A stretch of DNA of 64,000 nt from an uncultured SAR324 cluster bacterium (lineage in GTDB: Bacteria > SAR324 > NAC60-12): the NCBI GenBank assembly GCA_905182865.1, contig CAJJCY010000002.1:131040-195039 (forward strand), read 5' to 3'. Shown here piece by piece: positions 22,024 through 43,000 of this stretch. The translations under genes were made by a program, and so were the position numbers. The first letter of the stretch is position 1, and each line of letters begins with the position of its first letter. A model generated the notes under the pieces. That model saw only the letters and a program-made list of their open reading frames with translations. It made no database searches and had not been told where the DNA came from.

Positions 22024-23366
22024 TCAGTCGTGGTTTTTTCCAGGAATCCAATCTGTTCCGGAAAGGGGGACTTGCGCCATTGCGGCGGCTTCCACTGTCA
22101 AGGCGACCAAGTCTTCCGGTTCAAGATTGTGGACATGACTTTTCCCGCAAGCACGAGCGATGGTCTGTGCTTCAAGTGTCATCACCTTGAGATAATTCGC
22201 CAATCGCCTACCTGCCAAAACAGGATCAAGCCGTTTAGATAACTCTGGATCTTGAGTGGAAATTCCGGCAGGATCCCGCCCTTCGTGCCAGTCGTCATAA
22301 GCTCCGGCAGTCGTGCCGAGTTTTTGATATTCCTCTTCCAGTTCAGGATCGTTGTCTCCCAACGCCACCAATGCGGCGGTTCCTATAGAAACCGCATCCG
22401 CTCCCAACGCTAAAGCTTTTGCGACATCGGCACCATTCCGGATGCCTCCGGAAACAATCAACTGTACTTTCCGGTGCATTCCCAATTCCTGCAACGCTTT
22501 GACCGCCGGTCTAATGCAGGCAAGCGTCGGTTGGCCGACGTGTTCGATGAACACTTCTTGTGTCGCCGCCGTGCCGCCTTGCATTCCGTCCAGATCACGA
22601 TTGCATCTGCACCGGCTTTAACGGCCAATGTTACATCATAGTAAGGACGTGCACCGGCTACTTTTACATAGATTGGCACTTTCCAACCTGTGATTTCACG
22701 CAGTTCCAATATCTTGATTTCTAGATCATCGGGGCCTGTCCAATCCGGGTGACGACAAGCAGAACGCTGATCGATCCCTTTCGGAAGATTGCGCATGCCA
22801 GCGACACGGTCGGAGATTTTTTGGCCCAACAGCATGCCACCACCACCAGGTTTGGCCCCTTGGCCAACCACGATTTCGATTGCATCCGCTTTTCGCAGAT
22901 CGTCGGGGTTCATTCCATAGCGTGATGGTAGATATTGGTAGACCAGCTTGTTTGAATGCCCACGCTCTTCGGGTGTCATGCCGCCATCACCAGTCGTCGT
23001 TGATGTGCCCGCCATGGATGCACCTCGGCCCAAAGCTTCTTTTGCTGGGCCGGATAGGGCACCAAAAGACATGCCCGCGATGGTGATCGGTATATCCAAG
23101 TGGATCGGGTTAGAGGCGTGAAGCCCACCGATGGTTACGGAGGTGTCGCATTTCTCGCGGTAGCCTTCTAAAGGGTAGCGCGAGATGGAAGCACCCATAA
23201 ACAACAAGTCATCAAAGGATGGAACTTTGCGTTTTGCCCCACCGCCGCGAATATCATAGATACCCGTGGCTGCGGCGCGGCGGATGTCGCTGTTTACATC
23301 AGCGGAGAAGGTCGCAGACTGCCGTGGCGTCGTGTGCGGGATACCTTTATCGTCGTGGCTATTCAT
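22024..23366 (-). CDS. mgsC: N-methylglutamate synthase subunit C-like (glutamate synthase FMN/domain-2 homolog), set 1, frame-disrupted
   Basis: ORF 22458-23366 (..ITIAGMSFGALSGPAKEALGRGASMAGTSTTTGDGG..GQGAKPGGGG..) and ORF 22024-22584 (..VSGGIRNGADVAKALALGADAV..STQDPELSKRLDP) have frames differing by 2, with the shift at about 22585-22600. Confidence 0.8.
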
Positions 23367-23377
23367 TTTCAGTATCC

Positions 23378-24061
23378 TTAATACGCGCCGGCGTTATCGA
23401 CGTCGAAGTTATAGAGCGTGCGGGCAGAGCCGTAGCGCGTGAATTCTTCCGGCTTTGCATCCACTCCAGATTCCGCGATGATTTCTCTCAGGAATTCGAT
23501 GTGCTCAGGCCGCATTTCTTTTTTCGCGCAGTCAGCGCCAAGGGATTTAACTGAGCCGCGTACAAAGAAACGTGCTTCATAACAGCTGTCCCCCAACGCA
23601 TCGCCTGCGTCACCGCACACAACCAGGTTGCCAGATTGGCCCATAAACGCGGACATGTGGCCGATGTTGCCTTGTACGACAATATTCACGCCCTTCATCG
23701 AAATGCCGCAGCGCGAGGATGCGTTGCCTTTGACAACGATCAGCCCACCATGGGCGGTGGCTCCAAGATACTGGCTGGCGTCGCCCTCGATGATAATTTT
23801 CCCGGACATCATGTTTTCGCCAGTCCCCGGACCGGCCGAACCATGAACGTGAATGGTGGCCTGTTTGTTCATGCCGCCACAGTAGTATCCGGTGGATCCT
23901 TTAACGTTCACCTCAAGTGGGGCGTCTAGACCAACGGCTATAGCATGGCTGCCTTTGGGATTGGTTACCTCCCAAACGGTTTGGTTGGTTTCCGTAGATT
24001 GAGCGTTCAGCGTTGAGTTCAACACGCGCAACCCCTGCGCTTCAAGATCGAAACTTTGCAT
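23378..24061 (-). CDS. mgsB: N-methylglutamate synthase subunit B-like (GXGXG-motif GltB C-terminal-domain homolog), set 1
   Basis: 227 aa with repeated beta-helix G-x-G motifs (VKGSTGYYCGG, VHGSAGPGTGE, IEGDASQYLGA, VKGNASSRCG, VQGNIGHMSAFMG, VCGDAGDALGD). Its start codon overlaps the mgsA stop (TAATG at 24059-24063). Confidence 0.8.
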   Translation of the reverse strand: MQSFDLEAQGLRVLNSTLNAQSTETNQTVWEVTNPKGSHAIAVGLDAPLEVNVKGSTGYYCGGMNKQATIHVHGSAGPGTGENMMSGKIIIEGDASQYLGATAHGGLIVVKGNASSRCGISMKGVNIVVQGNIGHMSAFMGQSGNLVVCGDAGDALGDSCYEARFFVRGSVKSLGADCAKKEMRPEHIEFLREIIAESGVDAKPEEFTRYGSARTLYNFDVDNAGAY

Positions 24062-25012
24062 TAGGCGGCTTTCTCTTTTGACGTTGGTGCCTCGTTATGG
24101 CTCCAGAAATATACTGTCGCTGGCTCTGGCTCCCAAACGCGGGCTTTTTCTATGCCCGGCAGGTTCACCAGTGCACGATACTCGGACCCGAAGGCGACGT
24201 ATTGATCGGTTTCGGCCATCACTGCGGGCTTACAGGCAATTGGGTCACGGACGACGCCGAAACCGTCTTTGGTGCCAACAACAAATGTGAAGAACCCGTC
24301 TAAGTCCTCAAGGGCACTTTCCATGGCTTGGCCAAGGGTGGCACCCTCTTGCATACGCCATGTGAGGTAAGCTGCGCCAACTTCAGTGTCGTTCTCGGTT
24401 TCAATGTGAACACCAAGGCGGCGCAAACGGCGGCGCAATGAATTGTGGTTGGATAGCGAACCGTTGTGCACAAGGCACTGATCTGGACCGGTGTTGAAGG
24501 GGTGTGCACCCATTGTTGTTACAGCTGACTTTCCGTTGCCATCCGCGTGTGTCCGATTCCATGTGAGTTCCTGAAGCATGACTTAGGTTGAATTGCTCGT
24601 AGACCGTTTCCGGAGATCCAACTTCCTTGAATATTTCAATCGACTGTCCACTACCGACAATCCGGATTTCAGCCAGAACGTCCGGTGCAGACTGTGAATT
24701 TTTCAACCACCGGACAACTTTATCTTCGTCCGCATCTGTAACGAGAATACAATGTGTACCCACCGTTTTAATAGAAACAGAACACTGCAGCGTTGCAGCC
24801 AATTCAGTTTCCAGCGTTTCCCAAGAGAAATCTGGATCATCGTGCGCTAATGAAAATTTAGTCTGTCCCGACTCTACAGGGTTCCGGTAAATGGCCACTC
24901 CTGCTGAATCCGGACCTCGACTGCTCATTTCCACCAGCATGGGCTGAAACATGCTACCCAGTTGTGACTGCAATTCAGAATTTTTCAAATACAAACCGAC
25001 AATTCCACACAT
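24061..25012 (-). CDS. mgsA: N-methylglutamate synthase subunit A-like (class-II glutamine amidotransferase homolog), set 1, frame-disrupted
   Basis: ORF 24401-25012 begins MCGIVGLY (Ntn Cys). ORF 24061-24579 carries ..HPFNTGPDQCLVHNGSLSNH..DTEV..RDPIACKPAV. The frames differ by 1, with the shift at about 24560-24590. Confidence 0.8.
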
Positions 25013-25014
25013 AC

Positions 25015-25443
25015 CTAATTTTTCTGTTCAAGAGGCTCATTGAGTTCAATCACATAGCCGTCAGGGTCTTTGATGAAGGCCAGAATCCGTGTTCCGTTTT
25101 TCATCGGTGATGGTTCTTTGGTAAATTCCACTCCATGCTGTTTTAAATACTCACTGGTCTCATACACATCCGACACTTTAATAGCCAGATGACCCCAGCC
25201 GTTCCCCTTGACGTAGTCTTCTTCTTCATCCCAATTGTAAGTCAATTCGATATTTGTACCCTCATCCTCACCAATATAGCCTACAAAAGTATTGGTGAAT
25301 CGACCTTCGGGATATTCAGTTTTACGGTGAATTTTCATGCCCAATATTCTTGTGTAAAAATCCAGACTCCGATCCAAATCTTTCACCCGGATCATGGTAT
25401 GATCCAGCCGAAAATCAGGCATGGATAACGTTTTTTCAGTCAT
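25015..25443 (-). CDS. gloA: lactoylglutathione lyase (glyoxalase I, VOC superfamily)
   Basis: 142 aa, alignable by eye with E. coli GloA (HTMIRVKDLDRSLDFYTRILGMK...FVGY...IELTYNW...GHLAIKV...AFIKDPDGYVIEL). Its TAG stop lies 2 nt before the mgsA ATG. Confidence 0.85.
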   Translation of the reverse strand: MTEKTLSMPDFRLDHTMIRVKDLDRSLDFYTRILGMKIHRKTEYPEGRFTNTFVGYIGEDEGTNIELTYNWDEEEDYVKGNGWGHLAIKVSDVYETSEYLKQHGVEFTKEPSPMKNGTRILAFIKDPDGYVIELNEPLEQKN

Positions 25444-25505
25444 TGTTTTTTTCCTTTAGTTAAAGGTTAATGCAACCGTAAAAAGTTTAAAAATACAAGA
25501 ACCTC

Positions 25506-25607
25506 ACCACAGAGGTTTCATAGATATACTAATAAAAACAGCCCTCTGTGTCCTCTGTGGTAAAATAGTTTTTGTGCGTTTTTAGACTTTTTACTACTGC
25601 ATCAAGG
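25506..25607. repeat. palindromic intergenic repeat, variant D
   Basis: Inverted arms accacagagg (25506-25515) and cctctgtggt (25552-25561), followed by the tail ..tgcgtttttagactttttactactgcatcaagg. This resembles the GACTTTTTGA tail of copies A-C. Confidence 0.55.
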
Positions 25608-26729
25608 TTAATTATTCAAACCCGGACGAATGGCATCGGCAACCAATTCCTGAAAACTCCGGACACTGGATTCCCAATACGGAGATAAAAATCCGCCTTG
25701 TCGGGCCGCATCCGAGTGGCGTCCTTCCTGAAGCCGTTCACACATCGCATGATCTTCTTTGTGTACACTTTCCCACAGTCTGCTGATTTTTTCAACCACT
25801 TCAGTGCTTTGATCAGAATCTTTGTGTTGATAAATCACCCGTCTTTGGCAGGTTATCCCTGCGGACACAGGCTGATTGAGATGGACTCCAATTTGATCAG
25901 GATAGTAAACTCCCAGCACAAAGTTCGGAAACAAAGTCAAATACCTCGAACTAACGGACAGTGTTCCTTCCTGCGCTTTCTCCTGTTGCTCCGAAGTCAG
26001 GTCAACTGCACTTCCCAGACAATGTCCGTCACTTACGACATAGTGATCCTCTAACGGCTGATTTGTGGTTTTTTTATGTACAAATTGAACGTGATACGGT
26101 TCAATGAAATTTTCCATCAAGAGTTTCCAGTTTGATTTTATTTCACCAAATTCAATGCTGGCGACCACAACAAAATCATCCAGATCAATTCCTGCTAATT
26201 GTTTTTTCATGGGAGCAATGTGTGACTCGAATGATACCGTGTCACAGTTGAGATTAACAAATATCCAATCATGCCAGATTGCAATTTTGACAGAATGAAG
26301 TCCATGCTCTGTCATATTAAATCCTTCAGGTTGGTGCTCTCTCCCTCCAAAAAAAGGAGTGGCGCAAAGATCACCGTCTAGATTATAGGTCCATGAATGA
26401 TATGGGCAAGATAGCATTGAACCAACATTGCATGCCTCATCAACAATTTTCAGGTTTCTATGGCGGCAGACATTGTGGAATGCGCGGATTTTATTTTTTG
26501 AACTACGGACTAGAATCAATGGTTGTCCTGCCATATCCAAAGGAGTTATGTCACCGACCTGAGCAAGGTCATGCGCGAAACCTGCGAATGTCCAAGATTT
26601 AGCAAAAACAAGCTTTGATTCCAGTTCATAAAAATTTTTACTGGTATAAGCTGCGGAAGGTAAACCATGTTTAACATTCTCGTTTTCATCGAATGCTGAA
26701 AACAACTGTGTCCCCTTTAAATCTGACAT
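25608..26729 (-). CDS. Rieske [2Fe-2S] non-heme-iron oxygenase, alpha subunit (CntA/GbcA/choline-monooxygenase-like size class)
   Basis: 373 aa. Rieske motif CRHRNLKI...CPYHSWTY and mononuclear iron motif NFIEPYHVQFVH. No beta subunit or reductase is adjacent. Confidence 0.8.
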   Translation of the reverse strand: MSDLKGTQLFSAFDENENVKHGLPSAAYTSKNFYELESKLVFAKSWTFAGFAHDLAQVGDITPLDMAGQPLILVRSSKNKIRAFHNVCRHRNLKIVDEACNVGSMLSCPYHSWTYNLDGDLCATPFFGGREHQPEGFNMTEHGLHSVKIAIWHDWIFVNLNCDTVSFESHIAPMKKQLAGIDLDDFVVVASIEFGEIKSNWKLLMENFIEPYHVQFVHKKTTNQPLEDHYVVSDGHCLGSAVDLTSEQQEKAQEGTLSVSSRYLTLFPNFVLGVYYPDQIGVHLNQPVSAGITCQRRVIYQHKDSDQSTEVVEKISRLWESVHKEDHAMCERLQEGRHSDAARQGGFLSPYWESSVRSFQELVADAIRPGLNN

Positions 26730-27043
26730 AAAGCAATTCTCTTTATTTTATGGAAAGTTTAGACTATTGCAAAATATATTTTGACTAATTTAACAAATAC
26801 TATAGAAATATATCATCATTTTTTTGTCAATATAAATTTTTTATTGAGAGAAAGAGAAATTGTCTTTTGCCATTCTGTAACAGATTAAATTTTTACCCCG
26901 TTTTTGGAGCATCACTGTTTCGTCTCAAAAGACATCGATCAATTTGAAATAATGGCTGGCATTGAAATGTTCAAGAATCAATTTATTTTAAAACGTCAGG
27001 CACTTTAACAACATTTTTTTATCAACTCAATAAGGAGAACAGC

Positions 27044-28465
27044 ATGAGCATGATCTATCACGAAAATTTTGTGGACGCACTGCCGGAAATGGCGCGTGTC
27101 AAAGAAGAAAAGAAACGACTTGAAGCAGCCGGAGTCAAATACATTCTGTCGTGCTGGATTGATCTTTTGGGTGTGCCTAAAACGAAACCTGTACCGATCA
27201 GCGATTTTGAATTGTTGTGTATGGGCAAGGGACCTCAGTTTGCGGTTCATTCCATTTCCTTTGTTCCGGAACTCGGCCCGGCGGATTCCGATCAGATTCC
27301 GGTTCCTGATTTGGACAGCCTGATCATATGCCCGTGGGATTCAACCTGTGCCTGGATGTTTGCCGATTTGTGGTGGGAGGGACATCCTTACAACCTTTGT
27401 CCGCGCAGTGCACTCAAACGCATCATTAAGGATACAGCAGATCAGGGTTATGCGGTTATGGCAGGAATTGAACCTGAGTTCATGGTGATGAAGTGGCATG
27501 ATGGGCAGCCTGTCAAAGCATTTGATAATGATCCAAATTCTGGTCAGGGTTTGCGTCCGCGCCGACAGGCTTTCGGTTACGACGTGGAATATTCGATTGA
27601 TTCAATGAGTTTCCTCGGAGAGTTGATTGACATTATTGAAGGGCTGGGATGGAATATACACGATGTTGTGGCAGAGGGTGCATACTCTCAGTTTGAGCTG
27701 GATTTTCATTACACGGATGTTTTACGCATGGCCGACCGCTTTGTTTTTTTGCGTGTTTTGCTCAAGGAAGTGGCCAAACGTCACGGCATGTTTGTTACAT
27801 TTATGCCAAAAACCACCATCGGCGATTGGCGTTCCGGAGCTCATTTGAATACCTCCATGCAGCCGATTGATAAACCGGGGACGAATTTTTTTGAAAGCAA
27901 ATCCGGCGGCTGGTCTGATTCGGTATTTAATGCAATCGGCGGGTTATTGCGACACGGCGGAGCACTGACTGCGATTGCCTGTTCAACGGTCAATTCTTAC
28001 AACGGACTTGTTCCAAGGGTCGGAGGTTTTGAAGGGGGCACTGTAACCTGGGCACCGACTCACATGACTTACGGCTACAACAATCGATCAGCCATGTTAC
28101 GCTTGCCGCAGAGTCGTTTTTGTATTGAAAACCGGGCAGCGGACATGTGTATGAATCCCTACCTCTCACTGGGCTTGACCACCGCCGCAATGACCGAAGG
28201 CATCGTCAACAACTTTTCTCCAGGAGAACCGTTGAACAAGGATTTGTATAGCATGAGTAAAGAAGACCTTGAACGCTCCGGTGCCCAACAACTTCCCCGA
28301 AATTTGCTGGAAGCGATTGAAATTTTGCGAGGTGATGAATTTGCGAGGAAAGTACTTGGTGCTTCAATGATTAATTCGTTTCTCCTCTACAAAACAGACG
28401 AATGGGAACGCTACCACCAAGCCGTCACCGATTGGGAAGTCGAAGAATATTTGAGATTGTACTGA
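27044..28465 (+). CDS. glutamine synthetase-like (gamma-glutamyl-amide synthetase-type) protein, divergent paralog 1, intact
   Basis: 473 aa with the GS catalytic-domain pattern (EPEFMV.., SQFELDF, FMPKTTIGDWRSGAHLNTSM, NSYNGL, NNRSAMLRLP, ENRAADMCMNPYL). The Gly-rich GSG.H.H.S block is atypical (RSGAHLNTS). Confidence 0.75.
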   Translation: MSMIYHENFVDALPEMARVKEEKKRLEAAGVKYILSCWIDLLGVPKTKPVPISDFELLCMGKGPQFAVHSISFVPELGPADSDQIPVPDLDSLIICPWDSTCAWMFADLWWEGHPYNLCPRSALKRIIKDTADQGYAVMAGIEPEFMVMKWHDGQPVKAFDNDPNSGQGLRPRRQAFGYDVEYSIDSMSFLGELIDIIEGLGWNIHDVVAEGAYSQFELDFHYTDVLRMADRFVFLRVLLKEVAKRHGMFVTFMPKTTIGDWRSGAHLNTSMQPIDKPGTNFFESKSGGWSDSVFNAIGGLLRHGGALTAIACSTVNSYNGLVPRVGGFEGGTVTWAPTHMTYGYNNRSAMLRLPQSRFCIENRAADMCMNPYLSLGLTTAAMTEGIVNNFSPGEPLNKDLYSMSKEDLERSGAQQLPRNLLEAIEILRGDEFARKVLGASMINSFLLYKTDEWERYHQAVTDWEVEEYLRLY

Positions 28466-28480
28466 TTTCGATGGGGTATT

Positions 28481-29830
28481 GTGATGAATGTAGAGCAATT
28501 CAGTTTAAAAGGATACGCCGGATACGAAACCAGTTTGTCAGAGCACCCCGATGAGGAACTGACTCAAGTCGGGCCGAAAACTCCTTGTGGAGAATATCTG
28601 CGACGGTTCTGGCATCCGGTTTATCTCACCAATGATCTCTGTGATCTACCTGTTACCCTTAAAATTCTTGGCGAAGAACTGGTTTTGTTTCGAGACCTCT
28701 CCGGAACCTTGGGTCTGGTTCACAAGCGTTGTCCGCATCGGCAGGCTTCTCTGGAATACGGTAAATGTGAGGAACATGGAATCCGTTGTTGTTATCACGG
28801 TTGGCACTTCGACACCGACGGGAAGTTACTTGATGCACCGGGACAACCAGAAAATCTTAGTGATCGTCTGAAACTTCGGATCAAACTGGGTGCCTATCCG
28901 GTCGTTGAATACAAGGGGTTGATTTTCAGCTATATGGGGCCAATCGCGGAAATGCCGGAATTTCCGGTTTTTGATGCGATGGAATTTGAAAAGATGGAAA
29001 TGGTGCCTTATAAAGCTCCATTTCGCTGTAACTGGCTTCAGGTGCAGGATGCCATTCTTGACCCGTTGCACACCAGTTTTCTACATTCCAATATAGGACG
29101 CATGCAGTTCTCCAAGGGTTTTGGCGAAGTCGGGCAAATGGACTTTTTTGAGCGGGATGTCTGGATACTTGGAGTTAATACACGACGTGTTGGAGAAAAC
29201 GTCTGGTTCCGGGTGAATGAACTGGTTCTGCCAAATTTCACACAGGCGGGCAGTGCTTTCGCCGCAGACGGAACTCTGCGTCGTTTGTATGGACGCAGTT
29301 CTTTTACTCGCTGGGTTGTTCCGGTGGACGACGAAAACACGCTGGCACTGGCGTGGGCCAATTTCGGTGAGCGAGGTGATCCTCCCGAATGGAACACGCC
29401 GGAAGGTCCGGAACTCATCGAACAAGGAGAAGTGTTTGACAGGACTTACGAGGAACGCCAACGCTCGCCCGGAGACGCAGAAGCCACCGAAGGCATGGGA
29501 CGGATAACGGTTCACAAAAATGAAAACCTTGTCAGTAGTGACCGGGGAATCGCTTTGATGCGCAAACGCCTGCGGGAGCAAATCCGGGCCGTTCAAAACG
29601 GGAAATCTCCTGCGCGAGCTTCCGTAGCGAATTCTGGTTTGATCCCGACTTACGGTGGAGACACCGTGCTACGGATTCCACTTAAAGGAGATCCGGACGA
29701 ATCACAGACTTTGAGCGAGTTGGCTCATGCGTTTATGGAAATGCAGTATCAAGCTGACGATTTGAACGAGGATGAACGGGTGCGTTTTGTCGGTGAGAAG
29801 CTTACGGAACTGGAAACTAAAACTACATGA
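28481..29830 (+). CDS. Rieske [2Fe-2S] non-heme-iron oxygenase, alpha subunit (second, unrelated paralog)
   Basis: 449 aa. Rieske motif CPHRQASL...CCYHGWHF and iron motif DAILDPLHTSFLHS. It starts 15 nt after the GS-like gene (GTG 28481 or ATG 28484). Confidence 0.8.
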   Translation: MMNVEQFSLKGYAGYETSLSEHPDEELTQVGPKTPCGEYLRRFWHPVYLTNDLCDLPVTLKILGEELVLFRDLSGTLGLVHKRCPHRQASLEYGKCEEHGIRCCYHGWHFDTDGKLLDAPGQPENLSDRLKLRIKLGAYPVVEYKGLIFSYMGPIAEMPEFPVFDAMEFEKMEMVPYKAPFRCNWLQVQDAILDPLHTSFLHSNIGRMQFSKGFGEVGQMDFFERDVWILGVNTRRVGENVWFRVNELVLPNFTQAGSAFAADGTLRRLYGRSSFTRWVVPVDDENTLALAWANFGERGDPPEWNTPEGPELIEQGEVFDRTYEERQRSPGDAEATEGMGRITVHKNENLVSSDRGIALMRKRLREQIRAVQNGKSPARASVANSGLIPTYGGDTVLRIPLKGDPDESQTLSELAHAFMEMQYQADDLNEDERVRFVGEKLTELETKTT

Positions 29831-29878
29831 TAATCCAACAATCCAATCGTAATTTATCTAAAATTTACAAAAATAGGA

Positions 29879-30904
29879 ATGACAAACAATAAACTCCGTA
29901 TTCACATCAAGAACAACCACGCCTCTTCGGGGACTTTCCCACCGACCATTGAAGGCGAGGAAGTTTTCACCATCACCGAGGAAAGGTTTAGGGTCGCTTG
30001 TGAACGCTTTCCCGCAGTCGCGGAGCAGGTGGAGGCGTTTATTGATTGGGACCTGGAGCATTTCGCCGAATCAATGGAAACCGCCGATGTTCTTGTCACA
30101 TGGAATTTACCGACCACAAACCTCGCCAAAGTCGCGCCACAATTGAAACTGATTCATATTATTGGCGCAGGAGTCGAGCATCTCTGCCCGATGGACTGGG
30201 TTCCGGAAGGTGTAAAAGTGGTCAACAACCGGGGAGTTCACGCAGCGAAAGGAGGGGAGTTCGGCTTGATGTCGGTGCTGATGCTCAACAACCGGATTAC
30301 CGCGATTGCCGAAAACCAGCGTCGCGCAAATTGGGAATCGTTGTACTCCAGTCCTGTTGCCAAAAAAACTTTGGTAGTGATCGGGGTTGGAAACATCGGT
30401 GGTGCTGCCGGACAGCAGTGTGCGAGGCTGGGAATGGAAGTCATTGGTATCAGCCGACACGGTAAGCCTGTAGAGGGCTTCAACCAAGTGCTGACTCCGA
30501 AAGCACTGGTGGAGGTGCTGCCCAAGGCTGATTTTGTTTTGATGGCCACGCCCTTGACTCCGGAAACAGAAAACCTGCTTGACCGTCAGAAACAGGCTCT
30601 GATCAAACCCGGAGCGGGGATCATAAACGTCGGTAGATCCGGAACGATGGATTATGAGGCGCTGGTCGAGAATCTCAACCGAGGTCATTTTTCAGGTGCC
30701 ATCATCGACGTGTTTGACCCAGAACCACTTCCAGCCGATTCTCCTTTGTGGACAACTCCGAATTTGCTCGTCACTCCCCACATTTCGGCAGATGACGGCA
30801 ACACTTATGTTGAGATGACTTTGGGTTTGGTTTTCGAAAACCTTGAACGGTATTTAAAAGGACAGGAGTTGAAAAATTTGGTTCGTCCTGAATTAGGTTA
30901 CTGA
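29879..30904 (+). CDS. D-isomer-specific 2-hydroxyacid dehydrogenase family, NAD-binding
   Basis: 341 aa. Rossmann motif VIGVGNIGGAAGQQCARLGMEV, plus the ..NVGRSG..D..AL.. and TPHISA blocks typical of the family. Confidence 0.75.
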   Translation: MTNNKLRIHIKNNHASSGTFPPTIEGEEVFTITEERFRVACERFPAVAEQVEAFIDWDLEHFAESMETADVLVTWNLPTTNLAKVAPQLKLIHIIGAGVEHLCPMDWVPEGVKVVNNRGVHAAKGGEFGLMSVLMLNNRITAIAENQRRANWESLYSSPVAKKTLVVIGVGNIGGAAGQQCARLGMEVIGISRHGKPVEGFNQVLTPKALVEVLPKADFVLMATPLTPETENLLDRQKQALIKPGAGIINVGRSGTMDYEALVENLNRGHFSGAIIDVFDPEPLPADSPLWTTPNLLVTPHISADDGNTYVEMTLGLVFENLERYLKGQELKNLVRPELGY

Positions 30905-31125
30905 GCTTTGAAAACCTTTGACAACTAGTGTTTTGTAAAGAGATTTGTAAAAGAAAAGTAGTTATTTAAATACACTTTCAGGTGTACCCACTTTAGGATA
31001 GATACCCAACATACGCTCTTGTTTCAGGTAACATTTACTTCAACATAGCAAGAATGTAAGGACCTTTCCCTGGCTTACATTACGGTTTACCATGTTTTAT
31101 AATAGCCATATCTTCCCCTTATTGA

Positions 31126-31497: not shown

Positions 31498-31655
31498 TTT
31501 ATTCTCCTTCGTTTGAATTATTGGAACAGGAATGATACAATCTTCACCGGATCTTATCTGACAATCTTCAGCAAAGCTTGTGCCTCCTGAATCAATAATA
31601 CACTCGTTGTGAGGGTGGCTGTCAACTCTTTTTTTAAATGAATTTTAAATAAATT

Positions 31656-32678: not shown

Positions 32679-32726
32679 TGTTCGTCAAAACGGCATCATA
32701 AATCATCAACAATAAAAGGATTAAAA

Positions 32727-33792: not shown

Positions 33793-33867
33793 GGTCCTCC
33801 AACCATCTATACACACTATACGGTTTCCACTTGGCTTGAACTGATCTACCTTGCTGCCGGACTAGAG

Positions 33868-35185
33868 TTAATTATTACTTAAACATCCAACGCATTTTGT
33901 CGTTCCCATTCGGAGAAGTGCTGCATATAGCTGTTCCATTCGTTCCATCTTGAGCTTGACATATGAGTCCGCAAACTCAGCGCCAAGGATGTTTCGCATA
34001 GATTTGTTATTCTGGAAGGCACGCAGTGCATCCAGTAAGTTAAGAGGAAGCTTTGGTGCATTTTTAACTTTGTGACCCTCGGCATACATATCAATATCCA
34101 GTCGTTTTCCGGGATCAGTTTTGTTTTCTACGCCCCATAAGCCTGCCCCAATCAGCACTGCCTGCAGCAGATAAGGATTAGCGGCACCATCTGGCAAGCG
34201 CACTTCAAACCGGTCCTGGTCCTGGAACGCGACCATGTGGGTTCGGTTATTTCCAGTCCAAGTCACGGTATTGGGCGCCCAGGTTGCTCCTGAAGTGGTG
34301 CGTGGGGCATTGATACGTTTGATAACTGTTCACTGTTGGATTTGTGATTGCGGCCAAGCTGACGCATGTTTCATGAATGCCACCTATAAAATACACGCCT
34401 CTTGCGACAAAGTCCGCCTATTTATCTCCTGCAGATTCTGGTTTGCCATCTTTTCCAGATCGACATATTGACATGCATGCCCGTTGCCATTGTCAGCTCG
34501 GCAATCGGCTTGGGCATGAAGGTCGCTGTTTTGCCATAGGCTTGTGCCACATTGTGGATGACATATTTAAAGAATACATGTCTATCAGCTGTAGTTAAGC
34601 AATCAGTATAATCCCAGTTCATTTCAAACTGTCCATTCGCGTCTTCGTGATCATTTTGATATGGCCCCCAGCCCATAGTCTCCATGCTGGTCGCAGATTT
34701 CCGAATTACATCATAATCTGCCGCATCAGTGCCTGCTGGTCATAACAGGGTTTGGCTTGAATATCGGCTGAATCCGCGACAGCTGTTCCTTCAGGATTCA
34801 ATATAAAGTATTCACACTCAACCCCGGTTTTCACTTGAAAACCTTTTTCTCCCGCATCAGCAAGTACTTGTTTTAATACAGTGCGGGGACCGTGCGCCAC
34901 AATTTTTCCACCAAGATAAATATCACTGGGCAACCAGCCTACCTCCGGTTTCCATGGTAACTGTATCAGCCTATCGGCGTCAGGAACCCCGAACATGTCT
35001 GAATCTGCAGGGGTCATGTCAAGATGCGCAGCAAAGCCGGCGAAACCAGCACCGTTTTTCTGCATGCCTGCTATCGCAGCAGCAGGAACCAATTTTGACC
35101 TGACTACTCCAAACAAGTCAGTGAAACTAATTAAAAAATATCGTATACCCTTTTCCTTTGCTGTTTCCGCAAGACTGATACTCAT
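33868..35185 (-). pseudogene. gmaS: gamma-glutamylmethylamide synthetase-like GS paralog 2, at least 4 frame disruptions
   Basis: Fragments are 34706-35185 (N-domain ..GIRYFLISFTDLFGVVRSKLVP..GVECEYFIL), 34422-34685 (YQNDHEDANGQFEMNWDY..TATFMPKPIAELT) and 33868-34266 (TWTGNNRTHMV..RFEVRLPDGAANPYLL..). The true C-terminus (EWNSYMQHFSEWERQNALDV) sits in a fourth frame (33879-34094). Confidence 0.75.
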
Positions 35186-35753: not shown

Positions 35754-38108
35754 ATGGAATTAACTAATACATCAACTTCACGCCTTTTGGAACCTGGCTT
35801 GCGGAGCTTTCTCCCATATGGGATGGAACGCTATCAAGTTCCAGCTATGGGCACAATAGTCGTCACTTTAACTCCAGAAGACAGCTTGACCATTAGAGAT
35901 CCGGAAGGACGCCAATGCGGTGAACTTGTGGTTTTCGGTGAAGGCGGCCGTGAAGATGCTGAGTCACTTGGAACCAAAGCCTCCAAAGAAGCTTCCGGAC
36001 TGAAAAGTATCCTCAGCCAAAAATCAGTAAGCGCCAACAAAGTTACCGCTACACTTAAAAGAGGCGGACTGAATATCGGTAAAATGAAAGCCGTTCCGCT
36101 CTTTTCGAAAGACTCCCTTCCGGATGAAGAAGTTACGTTCCGGGCAAGCCGCGAGCTCACCTGTGTAATTGCCTCACTGGGCGAAAACATGATCGTAGAA
36201 GAACAAAATCCTCCGACTGATTTGGTGGCCTTTGTACAACGTGCCAATCCTGAAAACGTACCGACTCCCGATTTACCGGAACCACTCGCTGATCCACGCT
36301 TGGAAATCCGCATTCATAACAGTACCGCCAATGCTTATGAAATCAAAGCAGGAGAGTATTTTCAAATTTTGGATGTCGCCGGACGGCAGTGTTCCGATTT
36401 TCAAGCATTCAAGACCAGTCAATTGGACAAAGGGATTGAGAGTTGTATTGAGATGACAAGTACCCGTTCGCTGAATATGACTTCGTGTCCAAAGCCGGGC
36501 TTGCATTCAAAATTTTTCGATCAGGAAATGCAACCGTTGGTCGAAGTGATACAGGATACTGTGGGACAGCATGATACGTTTGGTCTGGCTTGCGCCCCAA
36601 AATATTATGATGATATGGGATATTTTGGCCACATCAGTTGCTCCGAAAATTTCAATACTAATCTGGAGCATTACGGAGTTCAAGCACGGGAAGGTTGGCC
36701 TGCTATCAATTTTTTCTTTAACACAGGAGTGGATGATCATCATGCAATGTATTCGGATGAGTCATATTCACGTCCTGGAGACTACATTTTATTGAAAGCC
36801 TTAACGGACATTGTTTGCGTGTCTTCTGCTTGTCCAGACGATACTACTTCGGCAAACGGCTGGAATCCTACCGATATTCACGTCCGGGTTTATCCGGCCA
36901 AAAATCTTTTCTCTAAAGCCATAGCAACTAGAATGACTCCCGAATCCGATGCTAAAATGACCCAAGAAACTGCCTTTCATAGCCGGACTTCCGCACTGAC
37001 TCGGAATTTCGTTGAGTACAATGGATATTGGCTTCCGACCTGTTATACCAATGGTGGAGCACAAGAAGAATATTACGCCTGCCGCGAAAAAGCGGTGGTG
37101 ATGGATTTATCACCACTCCGAAAATTTGAAATTCTCGGACCGGATGCAGAGCTTTTGATGCAGTGGGTACTCACTCGAAATGTAAGAAAACTCGCAGTTG
37201 GACAAGTCGTTTACTCTTCCATGTGCTACCCGCACGGTGGGATGATGGACGACGGAACTTTACTGCGTATTTCTCAAGACAACTTCCGTTGGGTGGGTGG
37301 AAGTGACTACGGTGGAGAGTGGATGCGACAACAGGCAAAAGAAAAAGGCTACAAAGTTTGGGTCAAATCCTCAACCGATCAATTGCACAACATTGCAGTT
37401 CAAGGTCCCAAAAGCCGTGATATTCTCAAAAAAATTATCTGGACTCCAGAGCATCAGCCAAAAGTGGAAGAAGTCAACTGGTTCCGTTTTACCATCGGCC
37501 GCATAGGAGACCTCAACGGAGTTCCAGTGATGATTTCCCGCACCGGATATACAGGGGAATTGGGATATGAAGTCTGGTGTCATCCTAATGACGCCCCTGC
37601 AGTTTGGGACGCGGTTTGGGAAGAAGGACAGGAGCACGGCCTAAAACCGCTTGGACTGGACGCGCTGGACCTTGTGCGTATTGAATCGGGTTTGGTTTTT
37701 GCCAGTTATGAGTTCTCTGACCAAACTGATCCGTTTGAAGCAGGGGTTGGTTTTACTGTACCACTCAAAACCAAGGAGGATGATTTTGTAGGTAAAGAAG
37801 CACTGATCCGCCGTAAAGCCAGTCCGCAGAAACAACTCGTAGGTTTGGAATTGGACGGACACGAAATTGGAGCTCACGGCGATTGTGTTCACACTTCCGG
37901 CGGGCGTGCTCAGGTTGGCATAATTACCAGCGGAATGCGTTCACCACTTCTGAAGAAAAACATCGCGTTATGCAGGATGGATGTAGCACATGCAGAACTG
38001 GGTACGAAAGTGGAAGTTGGGAAACTGGACGGACACCAAAAGCGTATTCCGGCACAGGTGGTGAAATTTCCGTTTTATGATCCGGAAAAACTTAAACCTA
38101 GATCTTGA
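35754..38108 (+). CDS. tdm: trimethylamine N-oxide demethylase (DUF1989 N-terminal domain + GcvT-type tetrahydrofolate-binding aminomethyltransferase domain)
   Basis: Intact 784-aa ORF. The C-terminal ~370 aa show a GcvT pattern (VVMDLSPLRKFEILGPDA..ISRTGYTGELGYEVW..GLDALDLVRIESGL..). The large N-terminal domain and overall length match the Tdm architecture characterised in Methylocella, Ruegeria and SAR11. Confidence 0.8.
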   Translation: MELTNTSTSRLLEPGLRSFLPYGMERYQVPAMGTIVVTLTPEDSLTIRDPEGRQCGELVVFGEGGREDAESLGTKASKEASGLKSILSQKSVSANKVTATLKRGGLNIGKMKAVPLFSKDSLPDEEVTFRASRELTCVIASLGENMIVEEQNPPTDLVAFVQRANPENVPTPDLPEPLADPRLEIRIHNSTANAYEIKAGEYFQILDVAGRQCSDFQAFKTSQLDKGIESCIEMTSTRSLNMTSCPKPGLHSKFFDQEMQPLVEVIQDTVGQHDTFGLACAPKYYDDMGYFGHISCSENFNTNLEHYGVQAREGWPAINFFFNTGVDDHHAMYSDESYSRPGDYILLKALTDIVCVSSACPDDTTSANGWNPTDIHVRVYPAKNLFSKAIATRMTPESDAKMTQETAFHSRTSALTRNFVEYNGYWLPTCYTNGGAQEEYYACREKAVVMDLSPLRKFEILGPDAELLMQWVLTRNVRKLAVGQVVYSSMCYPHGGMMDDGTLLRISQDNFRWVGGSDYGGEWMRQQAKEKGYKVWVKSSTDQLHNIAVQGPKSRDILKKIIWTPEHQPKVEEVNWFRFTIGRIGDLNGVPVMISRTGYTGELGYEVWCHPNDAPAVWDAVWEEGQEHGLKPLGLDALDLVRIESGLVFASYEFSDQTDPFEAGVGFTVPLKTKEDDFVGKEALIRRKASPQKQLVGLELDGHEIGAHGDCVHTSGGRAQVGIITSGMRSPLLKKNIALCRMDVAHAELGTKVEVGKLDGHQKRIPAQVVKFPFYDPEKLKPRS

Positions 38109-38272: not shown

Positions 38273-39740
38273 ATGACAGACTTAGAAGCACACGTTAACG
38301 CCGAGGGGCGAGACAAGTTGGTTAAACAGGTACGTGAGAAAATAAACGAACTTGGAGTCACCTATATTTACTATCAATTCATTTCCGTTACCGGCAGAAT
38401 CGTCGGCAAAGGTATTCCTGCCGATCATTGGGAGCGAACAGCCGAAAGAGGCTTCCAACTCGTGTATGGTTCCACTGCAAACTTGTTTGTTGATAGACAC
38501 GGCGATTATATCGGTTACGGGCCAGAATCATCAGAGTTAGTCGGAATCCCTGATCCAGAGACTTTTTGCCAATTGCCTTGGGACAAGCGAGTTGCACGTG
38601 TATTCTGCACTTGTTTCCGAAACCGTGAAGAAAGCCAGAATCCAGGAGGACATCTGACATCTGACTGCCGTGGCAATCTACGCATCATTCACAACGAATT
38701 TCAGGAAAAACACGGTTTAGACATGCGTGTTGGAACAGAACCGGAAATGATGTGGCTCAAACGAGGAGAAGACGGGAACCCGAACGGAGGAGTTACCAAA
38801 CCGAACTGTTATCACATTGATCAGTTTGAGGAACTTCGCCCGACATTTATGAAAGTCATCGAATACTCTCAGGCTATGGGTCTGGATATTATTCAAGGTG
38901 ATCACGAAGACGCACCGGGACAGTTGGAACTTAATACAATGTTTGACGACGTCCTCCGCAACGCAGACCGCTTAACGCTTACACCATAATCAGGGATTTG
39001 ACTTATCAGATTGTAGTTTGATCCTAATTTTATGTCAAAACCGTTTATGACACGTTTCAGCTTCAGGTTGTCATCACAACATGTCGCTCTGGAGAGGTGG
39101 GAAAGAGTCTGTTAATGACCTTCACAATACTAAACTTCCTGGAATGGAGGGAGCGTTTACTTACCTTTCCGGTGGTGAAAACACTTTTATGCCGGATCCA
39201 TCGATTGATAAGCGAAAGCCAGGACCAGTTGGCTTGCAGTGTATCGGTGGAGTGATGAAACACCTTGACGCTTTAACTTCCATTGGTTCCTCTACAGTGA
39301 ATTCGTATCGCCGTTTATGGGATACAGGTTTTTGGGCTCCGGTCTTTGCAGACTGGGGATATCAGAACCGCACCTGTGCCTTAAGGATTTCTGCTCCAGG
39401 ACGTTTTGAGTATCGATCTGTAGATTCGATGGTCAATCCATACTTGATGGGAGGTGCTCTGTTAAAAGCCTTCGATGACGGCATAACTAACGATCTTGAT
39501 CCCGGAGAAGCCGAAGAGCGCAACATTTATGAAGCGATAGATGCTGGTAAGCAAGTAAAGAAATTACCGATGACTCTTGGAGATGCTTTACAAAAGTTGG
39601 CGGATGACGAGGTCATAAAATCTTCGATGCCGGATGAGATGTACAAAGTTTTCCAGCATTATAAAAATGATGAATGGGAGCGTTTCAATCATACAGTTAC
39701 AGACTGGGATCTGGAAACATATCTTGACTGTTTGCCCTGA
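38273..39740 (+). pseudogene. gmaS: gamma-glutamylmethylamide synthetase-like GS paralog 3, burst of disruptions in mid-gene
   Basis: ORF 38273-38989 (..GTEPEMMWLK..DHEDAPGQLELNTMFDD..ADRLTL) and ORF 39081-39740 (MSLW..NSYRRL..NRTCALRISAPGRFEYRSVDSMVNPYL..). The 51 nt between RLT and FMSKPFM hold three same-frame stops (38987, 38999, 39014). A 1-nt shift at about 39050 precedes HVSASGCHHNMSLW. Confidence 0.75.
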
Positions 39741-39846: not shown

Positions 39847-40782
39847 ATGTGTGGAATAGCAGGAATTATCCGCCGGGGTGATCCCGGAAACATAGGGGAG
39901 GAGATGACTTCCATGCTCAGATCCTTGAAACATCGTGGACCTGATTCCACCGGATTTGCCGTTTACGGTCTACCCGAAAAAGATCAGTACGTGATGCGCT
40001 TCAAGGTTGCTGAACAGGAAGACATCGGCAAAGGTTTTGATATTCATGAGCAAATAAAGGACCGGAGAGCTACTGTAAACAGTCGTCTCAAGGAACTTGG
40101 TGTTGAAATATTGTCGGAAGAGGAAGCTACGGATTATGCGTTTCGCTACACTCTACGATATGACGGTGACTTGCGCAGAATGGCGGATTATATTGAAGAC
40201 ATAGATGACGCTGAAATCATGTCATTGGGGGAAGGATTGGAGTTGATAAAGGACTTGGGAGATGCTGATGTTGTTTCCGAACAGTACGGTCTTGGCAACT
40301 TTAACGGGAGCCATGCCATCGGTCACACACGGATGGCAACTGAATCCGATGTCGATATTCGCTCTGCACATCCGTACTGGGCATATCCATTCAACGACGT
40401 TTCCGTTGTGCACAATGGACAGTTGACTAACTACTGGAAGTGGCGCAGAACGATGGAACATCGTGGACACAGATTTATGTCACATTGTGATTCAGAATTG
40501 ATTGCTGTTTATCTTGCTGACAAAATGGATAATAATATTGGTCTGGAAGAAGCAATGACTGATTCGCTGGATGAACTGGATGGTGTTTTTACTTATGTGG
40601 TTGCGACTTCAGACAAGTTGGGAATGGCCAAAGACGTTATGGCTGCTAAGCCTATGGTTATCTATGAGAGTGATGACTTTATCGCGTTGGCTTCTGAAGA
40701 AGTTTCAATCCGTAAAATCTTCGATCACGATATTGACACATTTGACCCCTATGAAGGAGAGGTGAGAGTATGGGAACTGTAG
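39847..40782 (+). CDS. mgsA: class-II glutamine amidotransferase-like subunit (MgsA-like / split glutamate synthase domain 1), set 2, intact
   Basis: 311 aa starting MCGIAGI, with ..GHTRMATES..VVHNGQLTNY..CDSE..AAKPMV. Confidence 0.8.
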   Translation: MCGIAGIIRRGDPGNIGEEMTSMLRSLKHRGPDSTGFAVYGLPEKDQYVMRFKVAEQEDIGKGFDIHEQIKDRRATVNSRLKELGVEILSEEEATDYAFRYTLRYDGDLRRMADYIEDIDDAEIMSLGEGLELIKDLGDADVVSEQYGLGNFNGSHAIGHTRMATESDVDIRSAHPYWAYPFNDVSVVHNGQLTNYWKWRRTMEHRGHRFMSHCDSELIAVYLADKMDNNIGLEEAMTDSLDELDGVFTYVVATSDKLGMAKDVMAAKPMVIYESDDFIALASEEVSIRKIFDHDIDTFDPYEGEVRVWEL

Positions 40783-41608
40783 ATAAATCTTTTGAAGCTG
40801 GTTTACACACGGAACAACTCCGTGGACGGACGCAGCAGACTTTTTTTTCGGCAACTGAAGAAGAAAACTTCACTTATCCCTACAATGCGTTTGAGGTTGA
40901 TCGCGCTAAAAAGGGGGAGTTTGATGCCCAGGACCTGGAAACTTCCGAAATAAATTTAAAAATTCGCTCACTGATGGAGGAGGGGTGCGGGCACATAGTG
41001 GTCAAGAATCCTCGCGCCAAGCATTCAATCGGTGTTGGTATACTAAATCGTCTGACCCTTGACTTTGAAGGTAGTCTCGGCTATTTCGGCTGTGGTTTGA
41101 TTGACGGACCGAACATCCATATTTCAGGTAGGGTGGGTTGGTCTTTCGGTGAGAACATGATGGCGGGAACAGTTGTTATTGAAAAGAATGCTGGTTCAAC
41201 ATTCGGGGCCGCGATCCGTGGAGGAGACCTTGTCTGCAAAGGCGACGTCGGTTCACGTACCGGAATTGACATGAAAGGTGGAACCATCATTGTTGGTGGT
41301 AGACAGGCGCGTTTTCTGGATTCATGATGCAGCGTGGACGTATGCTGATTCTAGGTGACGCCGGTGCCAATTTAGGCGATTCAATGTATGACGGCACAAT
41401 CTATGTCGGAGGTAAAATAGCTTCTCTGGGTGTAGACGCGGTTCCGGGTGAGATGACAGATCTGGAAGCAGACTGGATTGAACGTAAGCTTGAGCTCTAT
41501 GGAATGAAAGCGCCCAAAGGTGTGAAGAATTTGCAGAAGATTGTCGCCGGAAAGCAACTTTGGAATTACGATAACTTAGAACCGCATGAAAAGAAGATTA
41601 TACTTTAA
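40770..41608 (+). CDS. mgsB: GXGXG-motif subunit (MgsB-like / GltB C-terminal-domain homolog), set 2, frame-disrupted
   Basis: ORF 40770-41327 (..VKNPRAKHSIGVG..FEGSLGYFGCG..ISGRVGWSFGE..IEKNAGSTFGA..CKGDVGSRTG..) and ORF 41324-41608 (..ILGDAGANLGDSMYDGTIYVGG..) have frames differing by 2, with the shift at about 41300-41330. The gene overlaps the mgsA2 end by 13 nt. Confidence 0.8.
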
Positions 41609-41668
41609 GTTTAACATATTTGGAAACGGGCAGATCCGTATTCTTTAATTTTCAAGCAGAGAAAAACA

Positions 41669-43000
41669 ATGGCTAGAAACAAATCTATCCTCGGTAAGAG
41701 CTTCATTTTTAAACCCGAGGTAATCGATGACATACATATCAAGTCAGAATTGGGACGCTACAGGATGCGTGGTTTCTCACTTTTCAAAAAAATTCCTACT
41801 TGGGATGACTTGACCTTCCTGCCGGGAACGTTGACGCGTTTCGTAATTGAAGGATACAGGGAAAAATGTCTAACAAAAACGATTATTGGCCCCAAAGCTA
41901 AGCGGCCTCTGGAACTGGATATTCCAGTCTATATTACAGGTATGAGCTTTGGAGCTCTAAGTTATGAGGCAAAGACTGCTTTGGCAAGAGGTGCAACAAT
42001 GGCTGGAAGTGCTACATGTTCTGGTGAAGGTGGAATGATTCCTGATGAACGTCGTTATTCATCAAAGTGGCTATACCAGTGTATTCAGTCACGTTACGGT
42101 TTTAACCCACATCACTTGAGACTTGCGGATTGTTGTGAATTTTTTATTGGGCAGGGTTGTAAGGTTGGTTTAGGTGGACACCTAATGGGTCAAAAAGTTA
42201 CCGATCAGGTTGCTGAAATGAGATCACTACCATCTGGTATTGATCAAAGATCTCCAGCAAGACATCCTGACTGGCTCGGTCCAGATGATTTGTCCTTAAA
42301 AATAAAAGAAATCCGGGAAGCGACTGACAGTCAAATTCCGATTCAGCTCAAGCTGGGTGCAGCACGTGTCTATGATGATGTTCGTATGGCACTCAAGACA
42401 AATCCTGACAGCATCTACATTGACGGTATGGAAGGTGGCACTGGCGCCGGACCTCATTTAGCAACTGAAGAAACTGGAGTTCCTGGAATAGCTGCCATAC
42501 GACAGGCACGAAAGGCTTTTGATGATTTGGGCTTGTCCGGAGAAATTTCATTGGTTTATGCCGGAGGCATCCGCAACGGTGCGGATGTAGCGAAAGCACT
42601 AGCTTTGGGAGCTGACGCGGTAGCGATAGGCTTTTCTGCTATGATGGCCTTGAACTGTAACAAAGATATTCCTGAAGCTAACTTTGAAAAAGAGATGGGT
42701 GTTAAAGCTGGTGACTGTTATCACTGTCATACTGGTCGCTGCCCAGTAGGTGTTGCAACTCAGGATCCAGAATTACGAAAACGGCTTGATCCTGACGAAG
42801 CGGCGGAGCGTGTATACAACTTTCTACACTGCTTGACCATCGAAGCCCAAATGTTCGCACGTGCCTGCGGAAAAACGGACGTCCATTCTCTGGAACCGGA
42901 AGATCTTGCGGCACTGACTATGGAAGCTTCGGCTTTGGCACAGGTTCCGTTGGCAGGTTCACAACATACTGTGGGCCGACCGGACATGACACGTTACTGA
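41669..43000 (+). CDS. mgsC: FMN-binding glutamate-synthase-domain-2 subunit (MgsC-like), set 2, intact, retains a three-Cys cluster motif
   Basis: 443 aa with ..ITGMSFGALSYEAKTALARGATMAGSATCSGEGG..GQGCKVGLGG..YAGGIRNGADVAKALALGADAV.. and GDCYHCHTGRCPVGVATQDPELRKRLDP (Cys350/353/358, nt 42716-42742). Confidence 0.8.
   Translation: MARNKSILGKSFIFKPEVIDDIHIKSELGRYRMRGFSLFKKIPTWDDLTFLPGTLTRFVIEGYREKCLTKTIIGPKAKRPLELDIPVYITGMSFGALSYEAKTALARGATMAGSATCSGEGGMIPDERRYSSKWLYQCIQSRYGFNPHHLRLADCCEFFIGQGCKVGLGGHLMGQKVTDQVAEMRSLPSGIDQRSPARHPDWLGPDDLSLKIKEIREATDSQIPIQLKLGAARVYDDVRMALKTNPDSIYIDGMEGGTGAGPHLATEETGVPGIAAIRQARKAFDDLGLSGEISLVYAGGIRNGADVAKALALGADAVAIGFSAMMALNCNKDIPEANFEKEMGVKAGDCYHCHTGRCPVGVATQDPELRKRLDPDEAAERVYNFLHCLTIEAQMFARACGKTDVHSLEPEDLAALTMEASALAQVPLAGSQHTVGRPDMTRY

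Follow-up and report, generated by a model that had tools for sequence, protein, structure and literature searches.

We analysed a stretch of 64,000 nucleotides (the window) from contig CAJJCY010000002.1, positions 131,040 to 195,039, of an uncultured SAR324 cluster bacterium (assembly GCA_905182865.1), which carries two three-gene sets related to split glutamate synthases. Set 1 (A1, B1 and C1) lies on the minus strand from 25012 to 22024 and set 2 (A2, B2 and C2) on the plus strand at 39847-43000. By homology, we are highly confident, for the two assignments jointly, that set 1 encodes the canonical N-methylglutamate (NMG) synthase MgsABC, also called GlxBCD, and that set 2 represents a separate, highly conserved and uncharacterised sister family. 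The best explanation of the pair as a whole, which we hold with about even confidence, is that set 1 is canonical and that set 2 acts on an amine, possibly dimethylamine, in a glutamate-linked reaction that depends on an iron-sulfur cluster. The source genome, from a deep-sea bacterium, comprises 3.23 Mb in 5 contigs, with a marker completeness of 86.5%.

The initial annotation had described two sets in the order A-B-C at these positions, and this description held. The Pfam domains GATase_6/7, GXGXG and Glu_synthase were found in both, and in each set an amidotransferase, a GXGXG protein and a flavin mononucleotide (FMN) subunit (PF01645) are encoded, in that order, by three adjacent genes. 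The components are as follows (aa, amino acids).

22024..23366, minus strand: C1 (MgsC/GlxD type); PF01645 in two pieces, one frame break
22249-22365, minus strand: Cys-less motif of C1, with D at 22354-22356, Y at 22297-22299, W at 22288-22290 and D at 22273-22275
23378..24061, minus strand: B1 (GXGXG), intact, 227 aa; PF01493, 9.9e-14
24061..25012, minus strand: A1 (class II amidotransferase, N-terminal MCGI); PF13522/PF13537, two frame breaks, three-frame reading
39847..40782, plus strand: A2 (class II amidotransferase, MCGI), intact, 311 aa; PF13522/PF13537
40770..41608, plus strand: B2 (GXGXG), 279 aa in relatives; PF01493, one frame break
41669..43000, plus strand: C2, intact, 443 aa; PF01645, 9.5e-92
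42656-42658, 42716-42718, 42725-42727 and 42740-42742, plus strand: Cys330, Cys350, Cys353 and Cys358 of the four-Cys site of C2, from alignment to glutamate synthase structures

At the protein level the sets share 35% identity in A, 38% in B and 54% in C, against an earlier estimate of roughly 40-50%. The GC fraction of set 1 is 0.51-0.54, previously given as about 55%, and that of set 2 is 0.45-0.47, previously about 45%. Both motif strings by which the C subunits had been told apart were quoted correctly: GDCYHCHTGRCPVGVATQDPELRKRLDP occurs in the open reading frame (ORF) at 41669-43000 and AYDDWHEGRDPAGISTQDPELSKRLDP in that at 22024-22584. What had been overlooked were the frame breaks and a fourth cysteine in set 2.

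The cysteine pattern was assessed by HMMER alignment to the glutamate synthase (GltS) of Azospirillum (1EA0). Cys330, Cys353 and Cys358 of C2 align with Cys1102, Cys1108 and Cys1113, respectively, which we take to be the [3Fe-4S] ligands of that enzyme; a residue count along the alignment confirmed the numbering. Cys330 (in 'ALNC') precedes a 19-residue insertion that ends in the fourth cysteine, Cys350 ('GDC'), and the resulting spacing is C-x19-C-x2-C-x4-C in C2 versus C-x5-C-x4-C in GltS. Three cysteines of set 2 had been proposed to correspond to the GltS ligands; two of them, Cys353 and Cys358, are indeed homologous to ligands, but Cys350 is an extra residue and the third ligand position is occupied by the overlooked Cys330. 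C1 has the same insertion as C2 and, as originally noted, lacks cysteine at the ligand positions, with D, W and D at the three GltS columns. The proposal that the sets differ at the cluster-ligand positions therefore stands, and the Cys-bearing set would be a different enzyme whose four-Cys site probably binds an iron-sulfur cluster. A literature search for iron-sulfur in NMG synthase gave no relevant result.

In a column table of 41 homologues, columns 330, 353 and 358 hold Cys in GltB and every stand-alone relative, save the C1 clade (D, W/F and D) and one other protein; at column 350, Cys is confined to 'four-Cys' types. The complete four-Cys site is retained by 119 of 120 cluster representatives and at 78 of 80 genome loci; the D/Y/W/D residues of C1 are kept in 118 of 120 SAR324 representatives. 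The Cys-less proteins form one clade in a maximum-likelihood tree (support 99/97), nested within Cys-bearing lineages, and their sister, P0257, has four Cys (100/99). Because of this nesting, canonical NMG synthase is, as read from the tree, the lineage that lost the site; on this tree the loss is derived and happened once.

Three further cysteines, Cys117, Cys138 and Cys164, are invariant in the C2 clade and were found nowhere else among the homologues. They lie in the loops TCSGEGG, YQCIQ and GQGCKVG, which correspond to the GltS segments GEGG and QGAKPGEGG, and may mark either an additional metal or redox site or a reshaped substrate pocket.

The assignment of set 1 draws on close relatives in NMG-pathway clusters. 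C1 is 84% identical both to GlxD of Rhizobium etli, where the locus reads glxA-glxB-glxC-glxD-glnT beside soxBDAG, and to MgsC of Aminobacter sp. MDW-2, encoded within mgsABC-glnT-mgdABCD. Identity to MgsC of the Roseobacter Ponticoccus, whose plasmid also has tdm and dmmDABC, is 84-86%. All of these proteins have the Cys-less motif AGAYDDW[HQ]EG[RK]DPAGI[ST]TQD in common, and C1 sits in their GlxD/MgsC clade on the tree (97/99), with C2 outside it at 50-52% identity in a clade of its own (100/100). The earlier suggestion that the Cys-less set is of the non-redox NMG-synthase type agrees with this identity and with the shared D/Y/W/D. A GmaS partner is also present: a true GmaS of 435 aa immediately precedes set 1 in the related SAR324 genomes G003, G011 and G017, and the intact orthologue scores 648.7 bits with TIGR03105 (GlnT/GmaS; cut-off 469.6 bits) and matches PDB 7CQL at 3.5e-185. 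In the window this ligase is 9 kb away from set 1 and fragmented.

33868..35185, minus strand: true GmaS/GlnT orthologue, 435 aa in relatives, in at least 5 frame pieces here

In set 1, GmaS would make gamma-glutamylmethylamide and subunit A would hydrolyse it. The FMN of the C subunit would run through a closed redox cycle in which glutamate is oxidised to enzyme-bound 2-oxoglutarate, methylamine is exchanged for ammonia and the product is then re-reduced, so that outside electrons would not be needed. In classic work, Pollock and Hersh reportedly found that the FMN of NMG synthase cycles internally. An internal cycle of this kind is consistent with the loss of an electron-entry cluster in the set 1 clade, where D, Y, W and D stand in place of all four ancestral cysteines.

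Homologues of C2 that are 87-96% identical were found in at least 582 species genomes, with carriers in Thalassospiraceae, Dongiaceae, Arenicellales, Acidiferrobacteraceae, Burkholderiaceae, Acidobacteria and sponge symbionts; cultured carriers of the set 2 module include Dongia sedimenti R-7 and Virgifigura deserti SYSU D60014. No match to C2 above 60% identity was found among 72,556 plasmids. On the tree, the insertion-bearing proteins form one group (98/98) with the C2 clade inside it (100/100), and insertion-free four-Cys (C-x2-C-x2-C-x4-C) stand-alone FMN subunits (P0266, P0267, P0288 and P0312) fall apart from C2. An archaeal-type GltS-like enzyme had first been offered as an example of what set 2 might be; the tree, which took in no named archaeal sequence, instead gives a sister clade of MgsC with a shared insertion. 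The full-length GltB model NF008730 (cut-off 1047 bits) was reached neither by C2 (132.5 bits) nor by the pieces of C1 (71 and 37.5), and the GltB central domain is missing from both sets. Two active-site loops of C2 are altered, reading GQGCKVGLGGH versus the canonical GQGAKPGGGGM and TCSGEGG versus TTTGDGG.

The gene before set 2, here GS490, had been called GmaS-like.

38273..39740, plus strand: GS490, a GS-like ligase (Pfam Gln-synt_C), not a GmaS orthologue

With TIGR03105 it scores 290.9 bits, under the cut-off, and it matches 7CQL at only 1.6e-45; the true GmaS goes with set 1. Orthologues of GS490 are intact, at 488-490 aa, in the related genomes G011 and G017. We also considered set 2 as the canonical mgsABC, as the GmaS-like gene and an upstream tdm might suggest, and rejected this because the canonical clade and the true GmaS match set 1.

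In some lineages a single genome encodes more than two MgsC-like proteins. Extra paralogues were found in SAR324 (G003:C282:15789-17033, G004:C58:30912-32147, G021:C3:10926-15141 and G038:C176:3836-5122), one type being 47-48% identical to both sets and another 56-61%. A 479-aa MgsC-like type with 54-56% identity is common in the order of the Arenicellales genome G088. A third stand-alone PF01645 gene (G000:C4:722463-723503, a 547-aa frame) has the classical C-x5-C-x4-C-P motif (ALGCIQARKCNSNLCPVG) and is unrelated to either set.

Set 2 belongs to a fixed module of DAO444, GS490, A2B2C2, orf125, orf198 and, usually, a GntR regulator. In the window it is accompanied by the demethylase gene tdm, and the remaining members are arranged as follows.

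35754..38108, plus strand: trimethylamine N-oxide demethylase Tdm (DUF1989 + GcvT by Pfam), intact, 784 aa
43098..43475, plus strand: orf125, conserved protein following C2, no family match
43609..44205, minus strand: orf198, conserved module protein, no family match
44252..45574, minus strand: DAO444, SoxB-like flavin adenine dinucleotide (FAD) amine oxidoreductase; PF01266

The 80 loci at which the module was surveyed belong to Alpha-, Beta- and Gammaproteobacteria, Acidobacteria and SAR324. The core GS490-A2-B2-C2-orf125 was present in nearly all of them. Homologues of orf125 lay beside C2 in nearly all loci by tblastn, and ORF clustering recovered the family in 52; orf198 was found in 34 loci by ORF clustering and DAO444 in about 45 by tblastn. 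Recurrent neighbours of the core were Tdm, MgdABCD, the GntR regulator and an Amt gene accompanied by a small membrane ORF, and a canonical set was also present in several loci. The Tdm of the window is 57% identical to the annotated tdm product of Ponticoccus. DAO444 is 86% identical to its G011 orthologue and scores 71.7 bits with TIGR01373 (soxB), far under the cut-off. Pfam and NCBIfam profile searches with orf125 and orf198 returned no match.

We compared the distribution of the module with that of Tdm and of the dimethylamine monooxygenase DmmDABC; related genomes are non-independent samples, and the counts describe a pattern with no statistical test attached. The source genome has Tmm, Tdm, GmaS and set 1; DmmA, DmmB and DmmC were searched for in it and not found. 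Among 88 SAR324 genomes, Tdm occurred in 12, C2 in 14 and both in 10, and true DmmC in none. The 151 genomes sampled from the order of G088 divided into 77 with Tdm and C2, 3 with Tdm only, 12 with C2 only and 59 with neither. DmmC was found in one of these 151 at 58% identity, a match which indicates that the DmmC query works. The distance between Tdm and C2 is often more than 200 kb in this order and amounts to hundreds of kilobases in many complete genomes. Five whole genomes with C2 were checked, and DmmC was found in none of them. On the 72,556 plasmids, Tdm was found 126 times, DmmC 147 times, the C1 type 247 times and the C2 type not at all. Why SAR11 and the marine Gamma- and Deltaproteobacteria lack dmmDABC has been raised as a question in the literature (PMC5520151).

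We propose that GS490 would catalyse ATP-dependent gamma-glutamylation of a small amine, which A2 and B2 would release and channel into the complex. C2 would add the amine reductively to 2-oxoglutarate, with electrons entering via the cluster, plausibly from DAO444, and DAO444 would carry out oxidative N-demethylation of the C2 product. As the module follows tdm and replaces dmm in distribution, we tentatively favour dimethylamine from Tdm over methylamine as the physiological substrate, while rating this choice somewhat below even. With dimethylamine, GS490 would make gamma-glutamyl-dimethylamide, and A2B2C2 would couple dimethylamine and 2-oxoglutarate into N,N-dimethylglutamate using cluster-fed electrons. 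DAO444, with orf125 and orf198, would then demethylate N,N-dimethylglutamate to NMG and give the electrons back. The set 2 module might in this way be the missing dimethylamine route of Tdm bacteria without DmmDABC (SAR324, Arenicellales and sponge symbionts), a proposal that we regard as rather doubtful. A literature search for gamma-glutamyl-dimethylamide or N,N-dimethylglutamate metabolism gave no relevant result.

Several observations weigh against, or limit the case for, set 2 as a cluster-dependent dimethylamine enzyme beside a canonical set 1. Besides the non-independence of the genomes counted, co-occurrence with tdm would be expected equally of a methylamine enzyme. All five whole C2 genomes that were checked have true GmaS and SoxD. 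In G122 (C9:1371403-1404513), the one sampled genome of the order with a true DmmC, both candidate dimethylamine systems share an island, in which C2 is 13 kb and tdm about 16 kb away from DmmC. The AlphaFold2 model of C2, made from a shallow alignment, has a mean pLDDT (predicted local distance difference test score) of 52, with residues 322-375 below 50, a confidence too low for the geometry of the cysteine site to be read from it. The canonical clade is anchored by GlxD/MgsC from NMG-pathway clusters other than those of Methyloversatilis, Methylobacterium and Methylocella, and the GmaS gene of the window, with at least 5 breaks in 1.3 kb, is possibly a pseudogene here. Finally, no other MgsC-like gene was found in G088 or in 32 of 89 C2 genomes of its order, a third of them, yet GmaS is present in the genomes checked; the formation of NMG from methylamine may thus be a further, or even the sole, activity of A2B2C2.

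This last point leads to the nearest rival, in which the set 2 module would be a second self-contained NMG pathway: GS490 would make gamma-glutamylmethylamide, A2B2C2 would make NMG, DAO444 would oxidise NMG, the cysteines would be structural or the cluster idle in turnover, and dimethylamine would be no substrate. The subunit composition is that of MgsABC, C2 and MgsC are 54% identical and have the insertion in common, many members carry the JGI label 'methylamine-glutamate N-methyltransferase subunit C', MgdABCD adjoins the module in several loci, and the checked genomes among those with no other MgsC-like gene have Sox/Mgd as well as GmaS. We nevertheless consider this pathway unlikely. It would be redundant where a complete canonical set adjoins, as in SAR324 and at loci L028, L039, L086 and L095; about 99% of members, across phyla, retain the four cysteines, all of which are lost in the canonical clade; the active-site loops of C2 are altered; and the distribution of the module follows that of tdm and the lack of Dmm. 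Close to the redox-capable GltS-like enzyme of the initial annotation is a true glutamine synthetase-glutamate synthase pair, in which GS490 would make glutamine from amine-derived ammonia and A2B2C2 would be a split ferredoxin-type glutamate synthase. The amidotransferase, GXGXG and FMN domains and the three GltS ligand cysteines are all present, an Amt transporter often adjoins, and GS490 scores almost equally on GlnA and GlnT models. Such a pair is improbable, as the tree makes C2 the sister of MgsC, apart from GltB and from the stand-alone four-Cys proteins that lack the insertion, the genome already holds gltB, the GltS central domain is missing, and the module carries a demethylase-like flavoprotein with orf125/orf198 and tracks tdm and not general nitrogen assimilation. 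Our preferred reading of set 2 is still a glutamate-linked enzyme of amine metabolism that would depend on a cluster.

Indel errors of the assembly most likely explain the frame breaks seen in the two sets. The reading frame of A1 shifts twice, at about 24549-24568 and 24514-24533, so that the gene spans three frames, and C1 spans two, with a break at about 22582-22601; B2 is also in two frames (break at 41295-41311), and GS490 has at least 3 breaks at 38980-39090. In DAO444, a 14-residue out-of-frame stretch with a stop lies near 44923-45056; a reading of this stop as a selenocysteine codon was rejected, since it falls between two compensating indels. Indels are patchily clustered in the assembly. 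We attribute the breaks to assembly because essential rpoC and gltB are also broken there, in at least 5 and in 3 frame pieces, respectively (G000:C3:246228-250275 and C3:852808-857278), and because intact orthologues of all broken genes occur in related genomes, those of C1 in 9 genomes of the same genus. Were the breaks real, A1, C1, GmaS, GS490 and B2 would be decaying pseudogenes and neither set would function in this strain. At least 12 breaks do fall within about 15 kb of the island, clustered by gene as in GmaS and GS490, with none in Tdm, A2, C2, Amt or Tmm, and only in this genome does a stretch of about 9 kb part GmaS from set 1. Decay is nonetheless an improbable account of the breaks: an assembly of 5 contigs with this marker completeness has rpoC and gltB in pieces, the frames lack premature stops, there are no large deletions, and residues between breaks are still 60-96% identical to intact orthologues.

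In the window and in relatives, the gene order is Amt, then C1-B1-A1-GmaS on one strand, then Tdm, GS490, A2-B2-C2 and orf125 on the other, followed by orf198 and DAO444. The stretch of about 9 kb between A1 and GmaS (25015-33800) is not present in the related genomes (synteny of loci L018-L020; G003, G011 and G017). Its first gene encodes a glyoxalase; the others include two Rieske genes, one of them for a Rieske/ring-hydroxylating alpha subunit, a GS-like gene of 473 aa, and genes for a 2-hydroxyacid dehydrogenase, an alpha/beta hydrolase, a cupin and a deaminase. The coupling of set 1 to gloA and a Rieske gene, as first described, is accordingly true of this genome, where the glyoxalase gene is 2 nt upstream of A1, but not of the three relatives, where GmaS adjoins. 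Further genes flanking the two sets are listed here.

12471..13814, minus strand: probable Tmm (trimethylamine monooxygenase), 447 aa; name from context only
20312..21637, plus strand: Amt-family (methyl)ammonium transporter; PF00909, 2.3e-57; also flanks set 1 in relatives
25015..25443, minus strand: glyoxalase-family gene (the gloA of the initial annotation); PF00903, 8.4e-29; 2 nt upstream of A1

The Tmm candidate has 65% identity over 449 aa to an NAD(P)/FAD oxidoreductase adjoining dmmDABC on Ponticoccus p-SCP4. Set 1 as a recent foreign gene, from its 54% GC, was rejected as stated, the set being conserved in 9 genomes of the genus. The window copy of set 1 has a mixed composition: over its C-terminal 185 residues, C1 matches other SAR324 at 93-96% identity, and the N-terminal 258 residues show only 78-79% identity to other SAR324 versus 82-86% to Alphaproteobacteria. 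For B1 the corresponding values are 59-62% to SAR324 relatives versus 68-75% to Alphaproteobacteria, and the change in affinity falls close to the frame break of C1. This mosaic may have arisen by recombination with a foreign mgs cluster, or it may be a chimera made during assembly.

As read from the tree, the textbook NMG synthase is the derived member of its family, having lost the iron-sulfur site. The Cys-bearing family is widespread, unusually conserved and tied to tdm where the dimethylamine monooxygenase is missing. Annotation pipelines give both families the same names, 'FMN-binding glutamate synthase family protein' or 'mgsC', and counts of mgs or gmaS genes in marine surveys may for this reason pool two enzymes. 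Dimethylamine feeds marine aerosol formation. A defined gene set in cultured carriers makes the dimethylamine question directly testable, and the proposed route, if true, would be a redox-balanced, oxygen-independent alternative to the monooxygenase, whose absence was described as a 'metabolic bottleneck' for dimethylamine (Lidbury et al. 2017).

Both sets were compared with known systems, the first being MgsABC/GlxBCD with GmaS (GlnT), as found in Aminobacter, R. etli, Paracoccus aminophilus pAMI6, Roseobacters, Methyloversatilis universalis FAM5 and SAR11_1313-1316. Set 1 resembles these clusters in its three subunits in the same order, the 84% identity of C, the D/Y/W/D residues and the GmaS adjoining in relatives, and differs in that the window copy is about 9 kb from GmaS and is mosaic. 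Set 2 is alike in its three-subunit layout, the 19-residue insertion, the N-terminal Cys of A and a GS-like ligase upstream. Unlike these clusters, it has a C subunit only 50-54% identical and in its own clade, a B subunit about 50 residues longer, four cluster cysteines plus three clade-specific ones, a ligase that is not a GmaS orthologue, and orf125, usually with DAO444 and orf198.

The second system is GltB with its [3Fe-4S] FMN domain (PDB 1EA0, 2VDC, 7MFM and 1OFD), to which C2 aligns over the FMN domain at 1.5e-32 to 7e-28. Set 2 shares Cys at the positions of Cys1102, Cys1108 and Cys1113, with amidotransferase and GXGXG domains supplied by A and B. It differs in consisting of three separate proteins with no central domain, in having no beta subunit or ferredoxin gene adjoining, and in the 19-residue insertion and fourth Cys between ligands 1 and 2; set 1 differs from GltB in that all cluster ligands are missing. 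The third is DmmDABC of Ruegeria pomeroyi, Methylocella silvestris and Paracoccus aminophilus. The set 2 module would hold the same place, after Tdm and before the methylamine enzymes, and its distribution is complementary to that of DmmDABC. The two have no sequence or mechanistic relation: the DmmABC system is an oxygenase of the DUF3445 / PDR-VanB type, and the chemistry proposed for set 2 and its module is glutamate-linked and ATP-dependent.

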